Shown here one piece after another: positions 4,482 to 46,536 of a DNA stretch of 50,078 nt. Position 1 is the first letter of the stretch, and each line of letters starts with the position of its first letter. The position numbers and the translations under genes are program-made. The notes below the pieces were generated by a model. That model saw nothing but the letters and a program-made list of their open reading frames with translations, was not told the DNA's origin and ran no database searches. Source of the stretch: a phage. The stretch lies in sequence record NC_107631.1; one strand, given 5' to 3'.

Positions 4482-4525
4482 ACTATGCCCGAATCCATTC
4501 GGGCGTTTTTATCAATTAGTGCGAT
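4482..4525 (-). promoter_or_regulatory. dyad-motif middle promoter (degenerate site)
   Basis: TCGCAC-TAA-TTGATAA on minus strand; CATAGT hexamer 28 nt downstream, inside inverted repeat GCCCGAATGGATTCGGGC. Confidence 0.45.
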
Positions 4526-5667
4526 CCTGTCATTTCTGGACGATAGATGAAGCGACCTATTTCCCCAAACTGCTTATCGTAAACAATTACAGCCGCCTGG
4601 CGATATGAGCGCCACCCTCCGCGCGCTGCGTATGCGTCTTTCGCGCCTAACTGACCGTGCACTTCATCAATACCTAACGAGTGTTCAGTGATTGTCTGAT
4701 GATGCCAGTGACCGCTATGAGTATACACATACTTACTCTCTCCGAAGTCTGCACGGAAGTCTGCCGCCATCGCTGCAAGTCGCGTGTCTGCCTTTTTCAT
4801 AGTGTGCCCGTGAGTGTATCCCAATAAGGTGTTTCCCCAGCGAGTCTTATGCAGAATCATAGGACTAACGTCAACGAATACTCGCGGCTCGTCTTCATAA
4901 TATGCAGACATTGCAGCTCGCAGCCAAATCATCCCAGACTGATCGTGGTTCCCTTCGATAACCTGGACCTCGACTTCTTTGTGTTTCATAAGCATTTTGT
5001 CGATGGCGCGACGCACCGAACGAATCGCTACATGCACCAATTTCGCATATCGTGAATCCTGATCTAGAACGTGACCACTTGCCGGGGTAACAGCGTCAAG
5101 GCCGTCAGAGTGAAGGAAGTCGCCGCCGATTAACAGAACAGCCTTCTCTGCGTTCGGCGCAATATCGATCGCGTAATTAAAGAAGTCGCTAAGCACTTTT
5201 TCCGCTACGTCGGTGGAATAGTTCTCACCGCATTCATGCTTATGAGCAAGCGCGCCAATATGAAGATCGAATACCGGATAGAGTGCCAGCTTACCCATCG
5301 CCGTAGTAAGCCCTTGTGAGGTTAGTAGTTCAGTTGGCTTTGCTCGAGGCAGGTCTTCACAGAATGCAATACGCGCCGCTTCCATCATTGCCGCAATCTT
5401 CTCACGGTCCTGATCGGTCTTAACCCAGCGAACTACCTCGGTCCCATCTCCGCGAATCATCGTTGATGTACCTTTTACCATGAATCCTTCCGGCACGTTT
5501 TTAGCAACATGCTCGTTACCGTGGAAGTGGCCTTCTTTTGCAAGTTTTGCGTGACGCGCCTCGACAGTGCGAATGTGCATACCGTACTTTTCCGCGATCT
5601 CGCGAAGTGTAAGTCCGTTCATGCGCTCTTCGACAAGTTGTTCGGTAGTGATTTTAGCTTGTGACAT
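4516..5667 (-). CDS. calcineurin-like metallophosphoesterase with N-terminal HTH domain
   Basis: N-terminal HTH-like segment (LTLREIAEKYGMHIRTV); phosphoesterase motifs DLH, GGDFLHSDG, GNHD, GHT. Confidence 0.7.
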   Translation of the reverse strand: MSQAKITTEQLVEERMNGLTLREIAEKYGMHIRTVEARHAKLAKEGHFHGNEHVAKNVPEGFMVKGTSTMIRGDGTEVVRWVKTDQDREKIAAMMEAARIAFCEDLPRAKPTELLTSQGLTTAMGKLALYPVFDLHIGALAHKHECGENYSTDVAEKVLSDFFNYAIDIAPNAEKAVLLIGGDFLHSDGLDAVTPASGHVLDQDSRYAKLVHVAIRSVRRAIDKMLMKHKEVEVQVIEGNHDQSGMIWLRAAMSAYYEDEPRVFVDVSPMILHKTRWGNTLLGYTHGHTMKKADTRLAAMAADFRADFGESKYVYTHSGHWHHQTITEHSLGIDEVHGQLGAKDAYAARGGWRSYRQAAVIVYDKQFGEIGRFIYRPEMTGSH

Positions 5668-7536: not shown

Positions 7537-7949
7537 TTCATCATTTCGTAAATTGCGATCTTGAATTGCCCGAATCCGTATGCGACGGCAGAGAAGCCGC
7601 CACGCTCCCGGACCTTTTGGAGAAATTCCCTTTGCTTGTCGCTGACTGGTGACGCCTTTCCTTTTCCTGACTTATTAACCCGCTTAAGTTCGATTGCTGC
7701 AAACGGGTATCGTGAGTTAACACCAATCAGGATAACAAAGTCTGACACTCCTTTAAGTAATCCGGCCTGCTCATCCCTGAGCGCCGATGTGATTGTTTTT
7801 TCACCTTCATTGACAGTGTGCCAAAATAGAAGGTGCGGGAAGTTGTATTTCAGCCAGGACACGCAATCTACCTGGTGCGCGTCCTCTTTCCGTGTATCGC
7901 TGGGATCTCTCTCGTAAAATTCTAAATAATCACCTTTGTCTGTAATCAT
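7533..7949 (-). CDS. VRR-NUC domain nuclease
   Basis: PD-(D/E)XK-like core (GVSDFVIL..ELK); sits immediately downstream of the helicase, a common pairing; GGAGGA RBS. Confidence 0.65.
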   Translation of the reverse strand: MITDKGDYLEFYERDPSDTRKEDAHQVDCVSWLKYNFPHLLFWHTVNEGEKTITSALRDEQAGLLKGVSDFVILIGVNSRYPFAAIELKRVNKSGKGKASPVSDKQREFLQKVRERGGFSAVAYGFGQFKIAIYEMMK

Positions 7950-9958
7950 TCCGGGATATCCTCCATACCGAAGTCTTTACGTGAAATAATATCTTCTTTC
8001 TTCTGGTTGCGACGATGAGTTACGCGCACCGGGTGAGCAATATGATGTGAGTATTGCAAAATCTTGATGGCGTTCTTCATTCCGATAAAGTAGCGGCGCA
8101 TTTTAGGATCTGACACATGAGGTAATACACCTTTCGTTTTCCATAGCGTACCGCAAATCTTAGAGTCAGACTCGGGGAAGAATTTTTCATACGCCTTGAA
8201 CTCATCACCATCGTCGTTAATCAGAGTGTATTTGTATATTATACCTTTCTGGTTTTTGGTTAGCGTAACCTCAAAATTCTTTACTTCATACCAGTCATTC
8301 TTAGTGTACGCCTTACCGGATAACTTCAGGTTAGGATCGACAAGAGAAACATCACAACAACGACAGACTCGCGCAACAACATCATTCTCTGCACCGCATC
8401 CTTTAACAAGGATTTTCCCGGTTCGCTCGTCAACCTGGTCCTCACAAATCTGAGAAGTCCAGAAATGATCGCAACGCTCACCATCAATGACATTAACGCA
8501 TCGTCGAGCATAGAAGCTATTTACGCAACCGCATTTCGGACACGTTTTCGGGTCTTTTCCGTTTTCAAAACGCTTTTGGAATTGTGCCTGCTCAAGTATC
8601 GGATCGAAATAAAGCTGACCCAACTCATCCATCGTACCTGCGAAATCCCATACCAGATGGTCCTGCTTAACCATTCCCTCAGCAACCTGCCAAGATTTAA
8701 GCAGACGCATACCCCTACCCAAAAGTTGAATTAACAGTGTGAGCGACCCTATCTTGCGGAGTATGACACTGAAATCCCAATTTGGAACGTTAACGCCAGT
8801 AGTGAGCGCCATTACCTGAAAGGTGTATTTAATTTTTCCGGCCCTTACATCGTCAAGAATCTTCTTGCGCGCTTTGTTGTCTGTGTCGCCAGTGATGATT
8901 GCATAGGTACTTCCAGGAGGAAGTGCAGCCGCCGCCTCTTTGCAGTGACGCACCCCGGCGCATGTAATCAGTACCGCGTTACGCTCTTCAGCCTTTTTGG
9001 CAACCATTTGCATGATTCGCTGAGTAAGAGATTTATCATGAAGGATCTCATCTTCCATTGCCTTCATATCTTTCTCTGTAAAGTCCTGTACCCCATCCTC
9101 GCTTGAAGCCTTGAATTTATCAAGATCGTAGTGAACTCCGTCCGTCGAACCGAATATAGTCGGCACAACAGAACCGAACTCAATAAGATAATTTGTGTCA
9201 ATATCAGTCACGCGCTCACGCCAGAATCCAAGAGCTTTCGGATTCTCTACCAGAATAGGAACTACACCCCGAAATTCAGATCCAGTCATACCAAATATTC
9301 TGAGATCGTGACCGTGAACCTTTTTACAGCGCCGCATCATTTCCATGATTACGATCGTGTACTGACTGCGCTTAGTTCCAAGCAAAGGTTTTCCATCATT
9401 ACCAATCATGGGGATATCTCCGTCCATGATAACCTTCCCTTTCTCGCCCCTCATCTGCTCCATCGTTTCCTTGCCTTCGATGGCTTGCGCAAGGTCTTCC
9501 CAATCCACCTGGTGACATTCGTCGATCCCAATTACATGCGGTACGAAATCAGCTAACTCATTGTCGAGGCCATTTGCAACAGTACCCTCTGAGCCAACCA
9601 CGATCGGAAAGTAGCAGGACTTGATTCCAAGTGACGCTGAGAAGATGGAGTTCGTTACCCCGAAGTTGTCGATCTCTTCGCTATCCTGATCGACAATCTC
9701 ACCCTGACGAGCCAGGACAAGCATTTTTAAGCCCATTTTCTGACACTGCTTTGCCACCATAGCGAAGATGATTGTCTTACCTGCGGATACAGACGCTTTA
9801 ACGAAGAATGGATGCTCGTAATTTGATAGGCGTTTCGCGATCTCGGCATAAGCAACAACCTGGTACGGATAAGGAACAACCTCACCAACAGTAAATCGCT
9901 CCTGAGTTCTCTTTATATAGTCATCGCCAAGTAATGCAATCTGTTTTTTAATGTTCAT
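7946..9958 (-). CDS. SF2 DNA helicase (DEAH-type) with C-terminal zinc-ribbon
   Basis: Walker A-like SAGKT, motif II IGIDECHQ, C-terminal CPKCGC..C..C cluster; start moved to ATG at Met3 because track start is GTG. Confidence 0.8.
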   Translation of the reverse strand: MNIKKQIALLGDDYIKRTQERFTVGEVVPYPYQVVAYAEIAKRLSNYEHPFFVKASVSAGKTIIFAMVAKQCQKMGLKMLVLARQGEIVDQDSEEIDNFGVTNSIFSASLGIKSCYFPIVVGSEGTVANGLDNELADFVPHVIGIDECHQVDWEDLAQAIEGKETMEQMRGEKGKVIMDGDIPMIGNDGKPLLGTKRSQYTIVIMEMMRRCKKVHGHDLRIFGMTGSEFRGVVPILVENPKALGFWRERVTDIDTNYLIEFGSVVPTIFGSTDGVHYDLDKFKASSEDGVQDFTEKDMKAMEDEILHDKSLTQRIMQMVAKKAEERNAVLITCAGVRHCKEAAAALPPGSTYAIITGDTDNKARKKILDDVRAGKIKYTFQVMALTTGVNVPNWDFSVILRKIGSLTLLIQLLGRGMRLLKSWQVAEGMVKQDHLVWDFAGTMDELGQLYFDPILEQAQFQKRFENGKDPKTCPKCGCVNSFYARRCVNVIDGERCDHFWTSQICEDQVDERTGKILVKGCGAENDVVARVCRCCDVSLVDPNLKLSGKAYTKNDWYEVKNFEVTLTKNQKGIIYKYTLINDDGDEFKAYEKFFPESDSKICGTLWKTKGVLPHVSDPKMRRYFIGMKNAIKILQYSHHIAHPVRVTHRRNQKKEDIISRKDFGMEDIPE

Positions 9959-9977
9959 TGTCACGGCTATTAATCCT

Positions 9978-40453: not shown

Positions 40454-40497
40454 ACTATATCAAATCACCCCATCGACGTTTTAGCAATTCGTGCTAT
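40454..40497 (-). promoter_or_regulatory. dyad-motif middle promoter
   Basis: ATAGCAC-GAA-TTGCTAA; TGaTATAGT extended -10 28 nt downstream inside inverted repeat GTCGATG..CATCGAC. Confidence 0.55.
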
Positions 40498-41066
40498 TTA
40501 TTGATGAACGTGGCGGCTATGTGCTGAGCGGTAATTTCTGGATGGCCTTCGACAGAAAAGAAGTCACATTCCTGATAACCGTTGACCCCAATCATATCGT
40601 CCAGGTAGATATAGTCTCGACTGTCATTATCGAAGTTGCAACCGTTGCGATGTATTCGACATAGCTTTACCTGGATATCACCTTCAATCATCTGCAATAT
40701 TTCATCTTTGAATCCACCATCAGTAAATACCGAAAGGGAGTGAGACTCTTTCACCTTGCTTTCCGCTCGCATACCGAAGAAGCGATTTCCGAACTGCGGC
40801 TTGATGACTTCCTCGCTAATCCAGATCATAAACTGGCGAGGGCTTTTACCGTTCAGGATTGATGCTGGCTCTTCTTTATATCGACGGTCCTCATACAAGA
40901 ACATGAAATACTCGTAGTTAGCTTCACCCAGGATTGCCCGGGCAATCTCAAACATTGGCGCTTTGAAGCTGCGCAAGGCTACGTGATCGTAAGTGTCAGC
41001 CAGGATGCATCCGATAGTGTCTTTTCCCGCGCCAGGTGCGCCGTTTAAAATGATAGCTGTTTTCAT
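40494..41066 (-). CDS. P-loop kinase, polynucleotide kinase-like
   Basis: Walker A ILNGAPGAGKDT resembling the T4 Pnk N-terminal kinase domain; AGGGAG RBS. Confidence 0.55.
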   Translation of the reverse strand: MKTAIILNGAPGAGKDTIGCILADTYDHVALRSFKAPMFEIARAILGEANYEYFMFLYEDRRYKEEPASILNGKSPRQFMIWISEEVIKPQFGNRFFGMRAESKVKESHSLSVFTDGGFKDEILQMIEGDIQVKLCRIHRNGCNFDNDSRDYIYLDDMIGVNGYQECDFFSVEGHPEITAQHIAATFINK

Positions 41067-41174
41067 GTTAGCATCTCCCTAAAAATAATTTTGCCACATT
41101 GATGATTGTGTGATTGATGATTAACAGGATGATAACCGTCAATACCGGATGTGCTGCAATAAATTCGTACAGGT

Positions 41175-41708
41175 TCATTCATCTACCCCGTGGGATTTTA
41201 AATGATCGTGAACGTTATCACCATAGTCAACTACAGCGTAAGTGGTTATCCCAAGCGATCTGAATAATGGAATAATTTGCGGCGAGTCATCCCAAGCCGC
41301 CAGAATGTTATCAATGCCGATCGCGCGCACCGCCTCTTCTTTCATTACCGTGTCTTTGCGGTTGTCGGTGTGCGGTCGCATGACTAAGTAATCATATCGA
41401 GCGCCGTGATGCTTAAGCCATAACTCAGATGCGTAACGCACCTCATCACTTCGCCCGGTTAAAATTATTACATGATATCCAGCGGCAAACATAGAGTTCA
41501 TCACATCGATCGTGCTTTGGATAGGGTTGTCAAATATTGCCGCGCGGTTAAACTCGGACCAGCTTTCAGTCAAGTGCAAATCCTTTGTCGGCAGCAGGTG
41601 AAGTCGACCAGAACCATCGCTAAGTGTCCCGTCAAAGTCAAAGATTGCCACGCGGCGCGTGCCGAGAAACAGGTTGATTGTCTGGCCCCAAATTGTGATT
41701 TTATCCAT
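41175..41708 (-). CDS. HAD-family phosphatase, T4 Pnk 3'-phosphatase domain-like
   Basis: VAIFDFDGTLSD and NP..GYHVIILTGRS match the T4 Pnk phosphatase motifs FDVDGTL and GYQIVVVSGRES. Confidence 0.65.
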   Translation of the reverse strand: MDKITIWGQTINLFLGTRRVAIFDFDGTLSDGSGRLHLLPTKDLHLTESWSEFNRAAIFDNPIQSTIDVMNSMFAAGYHVIILTGRSDEVRYASELWLKHHGARYDYLVMRPHTDNRKDTVMKEEAVRAIGIDNILAAWDDSPQIIPLFRSLGITTYAVVDYGDNVHDHLKSHGVDE

Positions 41709-42671: not shown

Positions 42672-43328
42672 TTAAACTACGAAAAACAGCACGATAAGAG
42701 AAATAAGAAGCACGGTAGCCATAGCCAGGTTCGCCAGATTATCAATGTCCTTGTTGGTCAGCTTAGGCTTGACTTTACCATCAACTTCGGTTGGCTTAAC
42801 GCTGTGAATCTTACCCTGTTCGATGCGGAAACCGCCCTTGATTCGACTGGTATTAAATTTCTGCTTCTTCTTGCCGAACGTTGCAAACTTAGTGCCGCCA
42901 CTATTCCAGCGAAGACCCTCGCCGTTGTGAGTTACGGTTGCAATGCGGTTGCGACCCGTGTCGTCGGTAATTACAGCTGCGTGCTTTGCGTTCTCGGTCG
43001 GTACATCGTAGATATTGCCAACGGTAAATTTTTTGGTGTTATCGCTGATACATTCGAATTTCATAGTTTTTACCTCTTTATTATGCAGTTGGTTGATTGC
43101 TTCGATTACGTCGTTAAATTTAACACCATCCACGATTCGATGGAAGATATATTTTGAACTACCGCCATATGGCAGGAAAAGCTCCTGGTATTCGTGACGC
43201 CGCACAACGTTCACGTTACTACCGAACTCATCAACTATAACGAAGTTGTCGTCATTGACGCGAGCGCCTTCGTAGATTTTGCCGTACTTAAAACCAGATC
43301 CGATACTTGATACGCATTCAAATTTCAT
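42672..43328 (-). CDS. membrane-anchored protein with tandem duplicated domain
   Basis: Two repeats each beginning MKFEC(V/I)S...G(K/N)IY; C-terminal transmembrane anchor. Confidence 0.5.
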   Translation of the reverse strand: MKFECVSSIGSGFKYGKIYEGARVNDDNFVIVDEFGSNVNVVRRHEYQELFLPYGGSSKYIFHRIVDGVKFNDVIEAINQLHNKEVKTMKFECISDNTKKFTVGNIYDVPTENAKHAAVITDDTGRNRIATVTHNGEGLRWNSGGTKFATFGKKKQKFNTSRIKGGFRIEQGKIHSVKPTEVDGKVKPKLTNKDIDNLANLAMATVLLISLIVLFFVV

Positions 43329-43612
43329 GGTCTAACCTTCCTGTAAGGTTTGATTGATAACATCACGTATTGCGTGAAGTCGCATTCTTGCTCGTCATAC
43401 CCGCGATTGATGTACGGAGTCACGTCGGTAACATCGGATACCCTGGCGTGAACCTCCCAACCGGTAAACTCATCGCGATCGAACTCTCGTAGCTCAAGGA
43501 TATCACCAACCTGGAAGTTTCTGTCATTGACTCGGAACTCTGCCGTTTTGGTTCCGTTCATTACACCAATGAAATGTACCGGGGCGATTTTTAACTTATG
43601 AGTTTTGCTCAT
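43325..43612 (-). CDS. small beta-barrel protein, possibly ASCH/DUF3850-like
   Basis: 95 aa; weak pattern resemblance only; translationally coupled to the downstream gene. Confidence 0.35.
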   Translation of the reverse strand: MSKTHKLKIAPVHFIGVMNGTKTAEFRVNDRNFQVGDILELREFDRDEFTGWEVHARVSDVTDVTPYINRGYDEQECDFTQYVMLSIKPYRKVRP

Positions 43613-45205: not shown

Positions 45206-45249
45206 ATAATACCCGATCCGCTCGATCGGGCTTTAACAAAAAGTGCTAT
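45206..45249 (-). promoter_or_regulatory. dyad-motif middle promoter (cassette family A)
   Basis: ATAGCAC-TTT-TTGTTAA then TATTAT 28 nt downstream after inverted repeat CCCGATC..GATCGGG. Confidence 0.55.
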
Positions 45250-46060
45250 TCCATTCGCTAATTTTTGGAGGCTTTACAGATTCAACACAGTTCTTCAATA
45301 TCGCACACCTTTCGGCAAGTATGTCTGATTTGCTGCCACCTTTGGAAAGGCATTGATCTACAGCTTGCTTAACGTCATCAGTATCAATCCACTTATCCTT
45401 GTGGATACTCCTCCTGCAAGCCTCAATTGTCACTACCTTATTTATGGCAAGGTACTTAGGAACGTTGCAAGCCAGGTTAGTGCTATCTGCTGAGTTTAGA
45501 GGGTAGTTACCTAAAACTCTTCCATCAAGCATCCTTAGCCCATGCAGTTTTACCTCAACATTAGATTCCTTAATGGCTGAAAAAGCCTCACTTATCCTTT
45601 GCTTCCACCTGGCGGATCTGACTGTTGCAAATTCTCCAGAAGATCCCATGCATACCCATTCCCATTTTTCACATAGACTTATCAGTCTGCTTATTGGCTC
45701 GTGCATATGCCACACCGGAGCTGCCTTACTCTTTAGATCTGAAGGCAACTGAGATATGAGCTTATCATTATCCTCGGCACTGCCAGTTATGTCATCCGGG
45801 ATAACAAAGAATCTCAATTTTGGGTTGTCAAACCAGTCAGGAAGGAAGTTGCAATAAAACTCTCTCCAGTCTTGATTCTTCCCGCTCTTCCACTTTGAGA
45901 ACGCCCCATTATCTATGCATACAGTGTCAGCCGCATCAAAGGCTAATTTTATCTGATCAGGTCGCTCGAATGATACGAATGCACCGCTTCCACGGTGCGC
46001 GATTCGTGCAATCCTTCCCCTATCTCCCCATATTGGAGATCCGTGAAAGTGAATTGTCAT
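45233..46060 (-). CDS. DpdA-like DNA-guanine transglycosylase (TGT family), putative
   Basis: Local matches to TGT catalytic motifs: CIDNGAFS vs LTDSGGFQ, FVIPDD vs MIFDEC, SADSTNLACNVP vs GIDMFDCVMP; overlaps the start of the transporter-like gene. Confidence 0.5.
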   Translation of the reverse strand: MTIHFHGSPIWGDRGRIARIAHRGSGAFVSFERPDQIKLAFDAADTVCIDNGAFSKWKSGKNQDWREFYCNFLPDWFDNPKLRFFVIPDDITGSAEDNDKLISQLPSDLKSKAAPVWHMHEPISRLISLCEKWEWVCMGSSGEFATVRSARWKQRISEAFSAIKESNVEVKLHGLRMLDGRVLGNYPLNSADSTNLACNVPKYLAINKVVTIEACRRSIHKDKWIDTDDVKQAVDQCLSKGGSKSDILAERCAILKNCVESVKPPKISEWNSTFC

Positions 46061-46536
46061 AGTTTAAATTTCCTCATGATAGCTATGATTATAAATGCGC
46101 CAACTGTCTTAGCTGCGAATTGAGCTAATGAAACATCAATCATTATGCTTCCGAATGCTATCATTGGGAACGCCATAGAGTCAATTGCAGCCGACACTGT
46201 ATTTGCCGGGATTGATTTGCTGTAGAAGTCACCACGCTTCAACTTGAACGTTATGGCGCTACCAGTTCCAGCAAGGATTACTGATGATACTGATGCAACA
46301 GCTATCATTCCTGCACTGGGGTCTATAATCACTGTAGCAATCCCAGCTACAAAGCAAGCTAGCATCGAATACCAGAACCCAAAATTGTGCTGTATCTTGT
46401 CCCTGATAACCATGTCTGCTGATATGATTACGAGTGCATTGATTGGGGTTGACCACACCCCAAAGTACGCTACTGACAGGTTTGCTGCAACATACAGCAA
46501 AACAAATAATACAATCATTACTGATAATTTACGCAT
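46057..46536 (-). CDS. YhhQ/QueT-family (DUF165-like) 7-deazaguanine precursor transporter, putative
   Basis: About 6 predicted transmembrane helices; F-KLKRGDFYSKSIPANTVSAAIDSMAFPMIAF aligns with E. coli YhhQ FNRLRQSRRWWLAPTASTLFGNVSDTLAFFFIAF. Confidence 0.55.
   Translation of the reverse strand: MRKLSVMIVLFVLLYVAANLSVAYFGVWSTPINALVIISADMVIRDKIQHNFGFWYSMLACFVAGIATVIIDPSAGMIAVASVSSVILAGTGSAITFKLKRGDFYSKSIPANTVSAAIDSMAFPMIAFGSIMIDVSLAQFAAKTVGAFIIIAIMRKFKL

Follow-up and report, generated by a model that had tools for sequence, protein, structure and literature searches.

A predicted Pnkp-type 3'-phosphatase and a gp1-family kinase form a conserved gene pair in the early region of a T1-like phage

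Locus organization and genome context

The two main genes of the locus lie in the minus-strand early region of a phage genome, just upstream of the terminase genes, within a stretch of 50,078 nucleotides (sequence record NC_107631.1) that was analysed as a whole and is referred to below as the window. Both ORFs are found exactly at the coordinates given in the original prediction; they are on the minus strand, with the HAD phosphatase gene first and the kinase gene 108 nt further on. Together with a small ORF that occupies the interval and a distant gene whose product is a probable partner, the features considered are as follows.

41175-41708, minus strand: HAD phosphatase, 177 aa, with the DxDxT motif in the form FDFDGT; family of the T4 Pnkp phosphatase domain
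41068-41178, minus strand: small ORF between the HAD and kinase genes, encoding a hydrophobic peptide of 36 aa, MNLYEFIAAHPVLTVIILLIINHTIINVAKLFLGRC
40494-41066, minus strand: P-loop kinase, 190 aa, with the P-loop GAPGAGKDT; T4 gp1/phage dNMP kinase family
4516-5667, minus strand: phrog_704 'DNA repair exonuclease', 383 aa; distal probable partner

The 2.6 kb around the finding are 90-93% identical to many genomes of Tunavirus, the T1-like phages of the Drexlerviridae (ADB-2, Shfl1, SH6, phiL and IME18, among others), and the first 25 kb of the window match Tunavirus at a similar level; judged by these nucleotide matches, the window is a T1-like phage of the genus Tunavirus, with about 93% identity to known members. 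Among Tunavirus genomes, the kinase is conserved at 97-99% identity. Its gene is preceded, 8 nt upstream, by the ribosome-binding site AGGGAG, and a scan of the region for promoters and terminators gave nothing above shuffle expectation.

Several other minus-strand ORFs of the window were characterized along the way. Three genes upstream of the phosphatase, amid early ORFs without known function, a DUF3850/ASCH-like protein of 95 aa is encoded (43325-43612; Pfam PF12961, E=3e-16; phrog_986 'RNA-binding protein'). The 672-aa product of the ORF at 7946-9964 contains ResIII and Helicase_C domains and is therefore an SF2 helicase, which is annotated as 'hypothetical' in phiL, an annotation gap. 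The ORF at 45233-46060 encodes a DpdA-like protein of 275 aa that matches phrog_887 'queuine tRNA-ribosyltransferase' (E=2e-76) and has no Pfam match; it overlaps an ORF for a protein of 159 aa (46057-46536) that gives a weak Vut_1 (vitamin/queuosine-precursor transporter) signal (E=0.13). Among 50,697 phage records, a close copy of the DpdA-like ORF is present only in Escherichia phage LHE71 (95.6%), the remaining relatives being less than 60% identical, and some of the latter adjoin 'VUT family' genes; no ORF of this size is found in the respective region of the close relative phiL. These observations suggest that this Tunavirus carries, at 45233-46536, an uncommon module for the 7-deazaguanine modification of DNA.

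The HAD phosphatase

The product of the upstream gene matches the Pfam family PF25109 (HAD_PNKP) with 61.7 bits, compared with a gathering cut-off of 27.6 (E=1.1e-16), over profile positions 3-141 of 143, and falls in phrog_415 (7.7e-67), as does the C-terminal half of T4 Pnkp. Its best PDB matches by sequence are Pnkp1 and T4 Pnkp, its fold is closest to the solved Pnkp phosphatase domains, and BLASTP aligns it with residues 157-296 of T4 Pnkp at 27% identity (E=8e-10). In this alignment, D24, D26, T84, K123 and D141 are paired with T4 D165, D167, S211, K258 and D278, which are, respectively, the nucleophile, the general acid, the motif II residue, the motif III residue and a Mg ligand (Das and Shuman, 2012; PMC3592404). 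Four of these residues of the HAD protein (D24, D26, K123 and D141) are invariant in 16 homologues and T84 is nearly so. Furthermore, R35, R86, D119 and D140 align with T4 R176, R213, D254 and D277, which are reported to have catalytic-site roles as well. On the strength of these alignments, the protein is predicted to be an active, stand-alone Pnkp-type 3'-phosphatase that retains every catalytic residue, and the original identification of the upstream gene as a 3'-phosphatase of the T4 Pnk type is borne out by the above-threshold HAD_PNKP match, the aligned catalytic residues and the presence of T4 Pnkp among the best PDB matches.

The protein contains neither a P-loop nor a kinase domain. 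It is 91% identical to a phage T1 protein annotated as 'polynucleotide kinase', which is a misnomer for a 177-aa protein that consists of the phosphatase domain only and lacks a P-loop.

Following HAD motif I, there is a subfamily-specific insert of approximately 15-20 residues (R35-N54) that is highly conserved, the residues RLHLLP...SW..FN being invariant. T4 Pnkp lacks this insert, and the structural model predicts it with low confidence. It could be a substrate-specifying flap. A conserved 20-residue segment of this kind, along with the early-region location of the gene amid many small ORFs of unknown role, is compatible with an anti-defence function: the substrate of the phosphatase, alone or together with the kinase, would be a small phosphorylated nucleotide made by a host defence system as a signal or toxin. 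However, given that searches against PADLOC and anti-defence families gave no match, that no literature support was found, and that the gene neighborhoods point to DNA metabolism, such a function appears highly improbable.

The P-loop kinase

Under the original prediction, the downstream gene would encode a kinase resembling the N-terminal domain of Pnk, so that the locus would represent a Pnk split into two genes. None of the Pfam and NCBIfam models scored above its own cut-off with the kinase. In the PHROG database, it matches phrog_139 'deoxynucleoside monophosphate kinase' (E=2.4e-46, profile positions 82-260), and so does T4 gp1 (1.8e-65, positions 83-261), whereas T4 Pnkp is assigned to phrog_505 and other families but not to phrog_139; the gp1 and Pnkp queries were checked to be identical to PDB 1dek and 1ltq, respectively. 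Thus, in the domain searches against Pnk profiles that had been proposed as a check, the HAD protein matches HAD_PNKP, whereas the kinase does not match the Pnk family.

Sequence searches of the PDB with the kinase, either as a single sequence or as a 33-sequence profile, returned generic P-loop matches only, so that structure prediction was needed. When the AF2 model obtained from a 33-sequence alignment (pLDDT 95) was compared with solved structures, 1DEK (T4 gp1) ranked first, and no Pnk kinase was present among the best 60 structural matches. The model shows the gp1 fold, with a P-loop core and a helical NMP-binding domain, and the kinase lacks the Pnk-type domain with its general base Asp35 and Arg126. 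Foldseek comparison of the model with viral models (BFVD) retrieved mostly proteins named dNMP kinase. Alignment of the kinase profile with the single gp1 and Pnkp sequences by hhalign was also tried as a discriminator and was not decisive: the probability is 88% for T4 Pnkp, but just 24 P-loop columns align, and 72-77% for gp1, with 77% reached over 74 columns, a weak relationship at the sequence level. Given the membership in phrog_139 rather than phrog_505, the top rank of 1DEK and the restriction of the Pnkp alignment to the P-loop, the kinase is a gp1-family enzyme and not a split-off Pnk kinase domain, and the interpretation of the locus as a split Pnk has to be abandoned. Two findings had been named at the outset as evidence against an end-healing pair, a dNMP or nucleoside kinase and a nucleotidase unrelated to end healing; the former holds at the family level, whereas the phosphatase is truly of the Pnkp type.

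The roles of the gp1 residues K37, R68, R132, R177, M135, D175, E181, D204 and H206 in the dNMP site have been described (Wirth et al., 2023; PMC10653934, Table 2). In a low-scoring HMM alignment, gp1 R132, M135, D175, E181 and D204 correspond to R77, M80, D116, E122 and D148 of the kinase; R77, D116, E122 and D148 are invariant in the 33-sequence kinase alignment and M80 is nearly so. In the same low-scoring alignment, K37 is replaced by F39, R177 by G118 and H206 by R150, and R68 falls in an unalignable region. Given that two phosphate-binding residues of gp1 are not conserved (K37 to F39 and R177 to G118), the kinase may use an acceptor other than that of gp1; judged by family membership, dNMPs appear to be the most probable acceptors. 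Complementation of tmk/gmk/cmk mutants has served to test PP_1964 (PMC10653934).

Among the BFVD matches, a protein of 297 aa named nucleoside 2-deoxyribosyltransferase (A0A6J5RPH7, rank 37) includes a domain that resembles the window kinase in structure; this fusion, a more distant member of the fold, points the kinase fold family to nucleotide metabolism.

A small gene between the phosphatase and the kinase

The spacer of about 100 bp assumed in the original prediction is filled by the 36-codon gene at 41068-41178, whose ATG overlaps the stop codon of the HAD gene (ATGA) and whose own stop codon lies 1 nt before the ATG of the kinase gene. Across Tunavirus relatives, this frame shows 14 synonymous versus 3 non-synonymous codon changes, compared with 3/14 and 0/16 in the other frames, and the ORF is kept in phiL, SH6, Sfin-5, FCWL1 and the Tunavirus loci of IMG/VR. 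It is already present as a CDS in the annotation of Sfin-5, and in Sfin-1 it is CDS17, with a length of 111 nt (PMC6714547). Judged by the codon changes, the peptide gene is under purifying selection; PHROG and Pfam searches with the 36-aa peptide gave no family match. An alternative ORF of 39 aa in the spacer (41063-41182) was rejected, given that phiL, Sfin-5 and FCWL1 lack its start codon and that its frame gathers non-synonymous changes. The HAD gene, the 36-codon ORF and the kinase gene are predicted to be translationally coupled. In JMPW2, and apparently also in T1, an HNH homing endonuclease takes the place of the 36-codon ORF; where the endonuclease fills the slot, the gap between the HAD and kinase genes is 486 nt.

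Gene order, overlaps and fusions

Linkage of the two genes was analyzed in loci fetched from IMG/VR and GenBank, in which the genes were mapped with family HMMs. The HAD gene is located upstream of the kinase gene, on the same strand, in all loci that contain both (87/87); a kinase-then-HAD order initially seen by tblastn in Webervirus-like loci turned out to be an artefact of overlapping matches, the HMM mapping placing the HAD gene first everywhere. In Aeromonas phage Ahp1 (Autographiviridae), the two genes share 4 nt, and in Kagunavirus XY1 (Guernseyvirinae), 1 nt; these two groups are unrelated to the Drexlerviridae and have little else in common with them. In all, three phage families show the two genes overlapping or abutting.

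Comparison of the kinase profile with 1.84 billion representative proteins yielded 4921 relatives. In the fusion proteins P0218 (403 aa) and P0234 (461 aa), HAD_PNKP is N-terminal and a kinase of the window type is C-terminal; a third such fusion, P0350, is 74% identical to P0218, and P0234 just 37%. P0218 and P0350 are encoded intact (at 8001-9212 of locus L107 and 8001-9242 of locus L109, respectively, with the gene for a phrog_704 exonuclease next) on phage contigs of 12.5-60 kb from four different metagenome samples; for P0234, the only source is a contig of 1.9 kb. The order of the two activities, reversed relative to T4, was noted in the original prediction; it is not diagnostic of a rearranged Pnk, given that mammalian PNKP itself is organized as phosphatase-then-kinase.

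It could be argued that the two genes are mere neighbors that are inherited together and have unrelated functions, the kinase serving, for example, nucleotide metabolism and the phosphatase another early task in host takeover. Each gene is indeed found without the other in some phages: rV5-like phages possess the kinase without the HAD protein, beside thymidylate synthase and ribonucleotide reductase, and Drulisvirus possesses the HAD protein without the kinase, between endonuclease VII/5'-3' exonuclease and the RNA polymerase gene. Moreover, many Drexlerviridae have other small genes between the two, over a distance of up to about 2 kb, and the slot between them in Tunavirus takes an HNH endonuclease. 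However, the order conserved in 87/87 loci, the start/stop overlaps in both the Autographiviridae and the Guernseyvirinae and the maintenance of fusions at 37-74% identity make such a chance association improbable. The invariant order, the overlaps or abutments in three families and the three fusions support a functional tie between the phosphatase and the kinase; to this extent, the original view that the two proteins work together stands, although the kinase is not one half of a Pnk.

The phrog_704 exonuclease

The gene located directly 3' of the fusions, which encodes a protein of 386 aa, was considered as a potential ligase gene and turned out to encode a phrog_704 'DNA repair exonuclease' that is 44% identical to the product of the window ORF at 4516-5667. 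The window protein is 40-45% identical (E ~1e-150) to the phrog_704 proteins encoded at the fusions and in Kagunavirus XY1, and shows signals of an N-terminal HTH and a calcineurin-like metallophosphoesterase that are weak and fall below the Pfam cut-offs; sequence searches identified no solved homologue of the phrog_704 family. An uninterrupted set of exonuclease, HAD and kinase genes is present in 30 loci, Ahp1 and XY1 among them (in XY1 with the exonuclease first, followed by the HAD protein and the kinase), and a fusion and the exonuclease are contiguous in 4, which makes 34 loci in all; further examples of phrog_704 genes are located at 1982-2956 of locus L086 and 1283-2437 of locus L087. 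In the Tunavirus analyzed here, the exonuclease gene is not adjacent to the HAD-kinase pair but is located elsewhere in the genome. In the KanT1 study, PNK and dNMP kinase were found to follow this exonuclease most often, an arrangement that was interpreted as boosting nucleotide supply (PMC13164509).

In agreement with the original prediction, no ligase was detected by Pfam and PHROG searches among the larger unassigned ORFs of the window, a search that small or novel ligases could escape, or in the Pharokka annotation of the relative phiL. The lack of a ligase is nevertheless compatible with end healing, given that host LigA could seal healed DNA nicks.

Potential roles of the two enzymes

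The interpretation that we favor, with a probability of roughly 0.55, is that the locus is a conserved early cassette of two separate enzymes that help to recycle degraded host DNA into new phage DNA. Under this scenario, a phage nuclease, namely the metallophosphoesterase-type exonuclease encoded elsewhere, would break down host DNA; the HAD phosphatase would clear 3'-phosphates from DNA ends, 3'-dNMPs or deoxynucleoside 3',5'-bisphosphates, via an aspartyl-phosphate on D24; the gp1-type kinase would turn 5'-dNMPs into dNDPs; and host NDP kinase would finish the dNTPs. The 3'-specificity of the phosphatase would avoid a futile cycle with the 5'-dNMP kinase. Also in favor of this scenario are the retained equivalents of the gp1 substrate site, the contiguity with a phrog_704 exonuclease in 34 loci and the neighborhoods of the single genes in Drulisvirus and rV5-like phages. 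The phosphatase of T4 Pnkp accepts 3'-dTMP as well as polymer ends (PMC3592404), and in both T1 and TLS host DNA is degraded and its nucleotides are recycled, a process to which no genes have been assigned (PMC11447400). The cassette provides concrete candidate genes for this long-known process. On the other side, the scenario requires 3'-phosphorylated DNA or nucleotides in infected cells and names no source for them, the products of most phage and host DNases having 3'-OH ends; in addition, the equivalents of gp1 K37 and R177 are lost, the alignment with gp1 is weak, the exonuclease gene is not adjacent in this genome, and a 3'-phosphatase tightly fused to a kinase would equally be expected of an end-healing enzyme.

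The latter point leads to a different scenario, in which the two proteins are an end-healing pair: the HAD protein would clear away 3'-phosphates or 2',3'-cyclic phosphates, and a kinase of the gp1 type, recruited for this task, would phosphorylate 5'-OH polynucleotide ends, with DNA nicks sealed by host LigA and RNA by a host or unrecognised ligase, and with nucleases that leave 3'-phosphate and 5'-OH ends being countered as a result. Consistent with such a role are the bona fide Pnkp-family phosphatase with all its catalytic residues, the strict order of the two genes with their overlaps and three fusions in the order of mammalian PNKP, the association with an Mre11/SbcD-like metallophosphoesterase 'DNA repair exonuclease' and the loss of two ligands of the dNMP phosphate of gp1. 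We consider end healing by this pair unlikely. Equally doubtful is the extended version of this idea, that the HAD protein and the gp1-type kinase, together with the fusions P0218, P0350 and P0234, represent an unrecognised flavour of polynucleotide kinase-phosphatase, in which a protein of the dNMP kinase fold would phosphorylate 5'-OH ends of DNA or RNA, with the phrog_704 nuclease completing a DNA end-cleaning module directed at host nucleases whose products have 3'-P and 5'-OH ends; if the kinase does act on polynucleotide ends, this would be a new architecture among Pnkp end-healing enzymes. For the role in RNA repair and in countering host anticodon nucleases that had originally been suggested, no positive sign was found, the neighboring genes being those of DNA nucleases and nucleotide metabolism, not ligases. 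Reuse of host DNA is the most economical reading of the cassette.

Comparison with known systems

The gene pair as such is already known and is annotated in T1, TLS, Sfin-1 and KanT1. The orthologues include T1 'pnk' (3'-phosphatase, 5'-polynucleotide kinase) and T1p62, Gp09 'pnk' and Gp14 'dmk' of TLS, and CDS18, CDS17 and CDS16 of Sfin-1; the pair is already named PNK and dNMP kinase in the papers on TLS (PMC11447400) and KanT1 (PMC13164509). Sfin-1 has the same three-gene arrangement as the window, including the 111-nt ORF, and the respective paper notes that the similarity of the protein to T4 Pnkp is confined to the C-terminal phosphatase domain (PMC6714547). JMPW2, and apparently T1, differ from the window in having the HNH endonuclease instead of the 36-codon ORF; otherwise, nothing essential differs. 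A search of the literature on the function of T1-type pnk or the kinase found genome-annotation papers only. New here are the conclusion that the locus is not a split Pnk, the coding nature of the interval between the two genes, the invariance of their order, the fusions and the module of three genes. The resulting correction of annotation is twofold: hundreds of Drexlerviridae records call the 177-aa phosphatase-only protein 'polynucleotide kinase', and the neighboring kinase is a nucleotide kinase of the gp1 type, not the missing half of Pnk.

The HAD protein has the same fold, DxDxT motif and catalytic residues, without exception, as the C-terminal domain of T4 Pnkp (pseT; PDB 1ltq, 5uj0). 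However, T4 Pnkp unites its two domains in one polypeptide, whereas the window encodes the phosphatase and the kinase in two ORFs that are separated by a third. Moreover, homology of the window kinase to that of Pnkp is limited to the P-loop, the HAD protein has the additional insert of about 15-20 residues, and a ligase partner of the Rnl1 or Rnl2 type is missing. For the kinase, the nearest named systems are T4 gp1 (PDB 1dek/1del) and the dNMP kinase of phage T5; compared with gp1, to which it is 12% identical, the window kinase is about 50 residues shorter, without the gp1 insertion at approximately 96-128, and has lost the equivalents of K37 and R177.

Mammalian PNKP (PDB 3zvl, 1yj5) combines a phosphatase and a kinase, in this order, on one polypeptide, as do the fusions P0218, P0350 and P0234. 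Residues 152-254 of the T4 phosphatase match 51-154 of 3zvl, and residues 3-36 of the T4 kinase match 259-291. Mammalian PNKP, which acts on DNA strand breaks, differs from the window pair in that it has a Pnk-type kinase domain, a phosphatase of a different HAD subfamily and an FHA domain. A precedent for stand-alone HAD DNA 3'-phosphatases without a kinase domain is provided by yeast Tpp1 and plant ZDP, two eukaryotic proteins of another HAD subfamily that have no nucleotide kinase as a partner.
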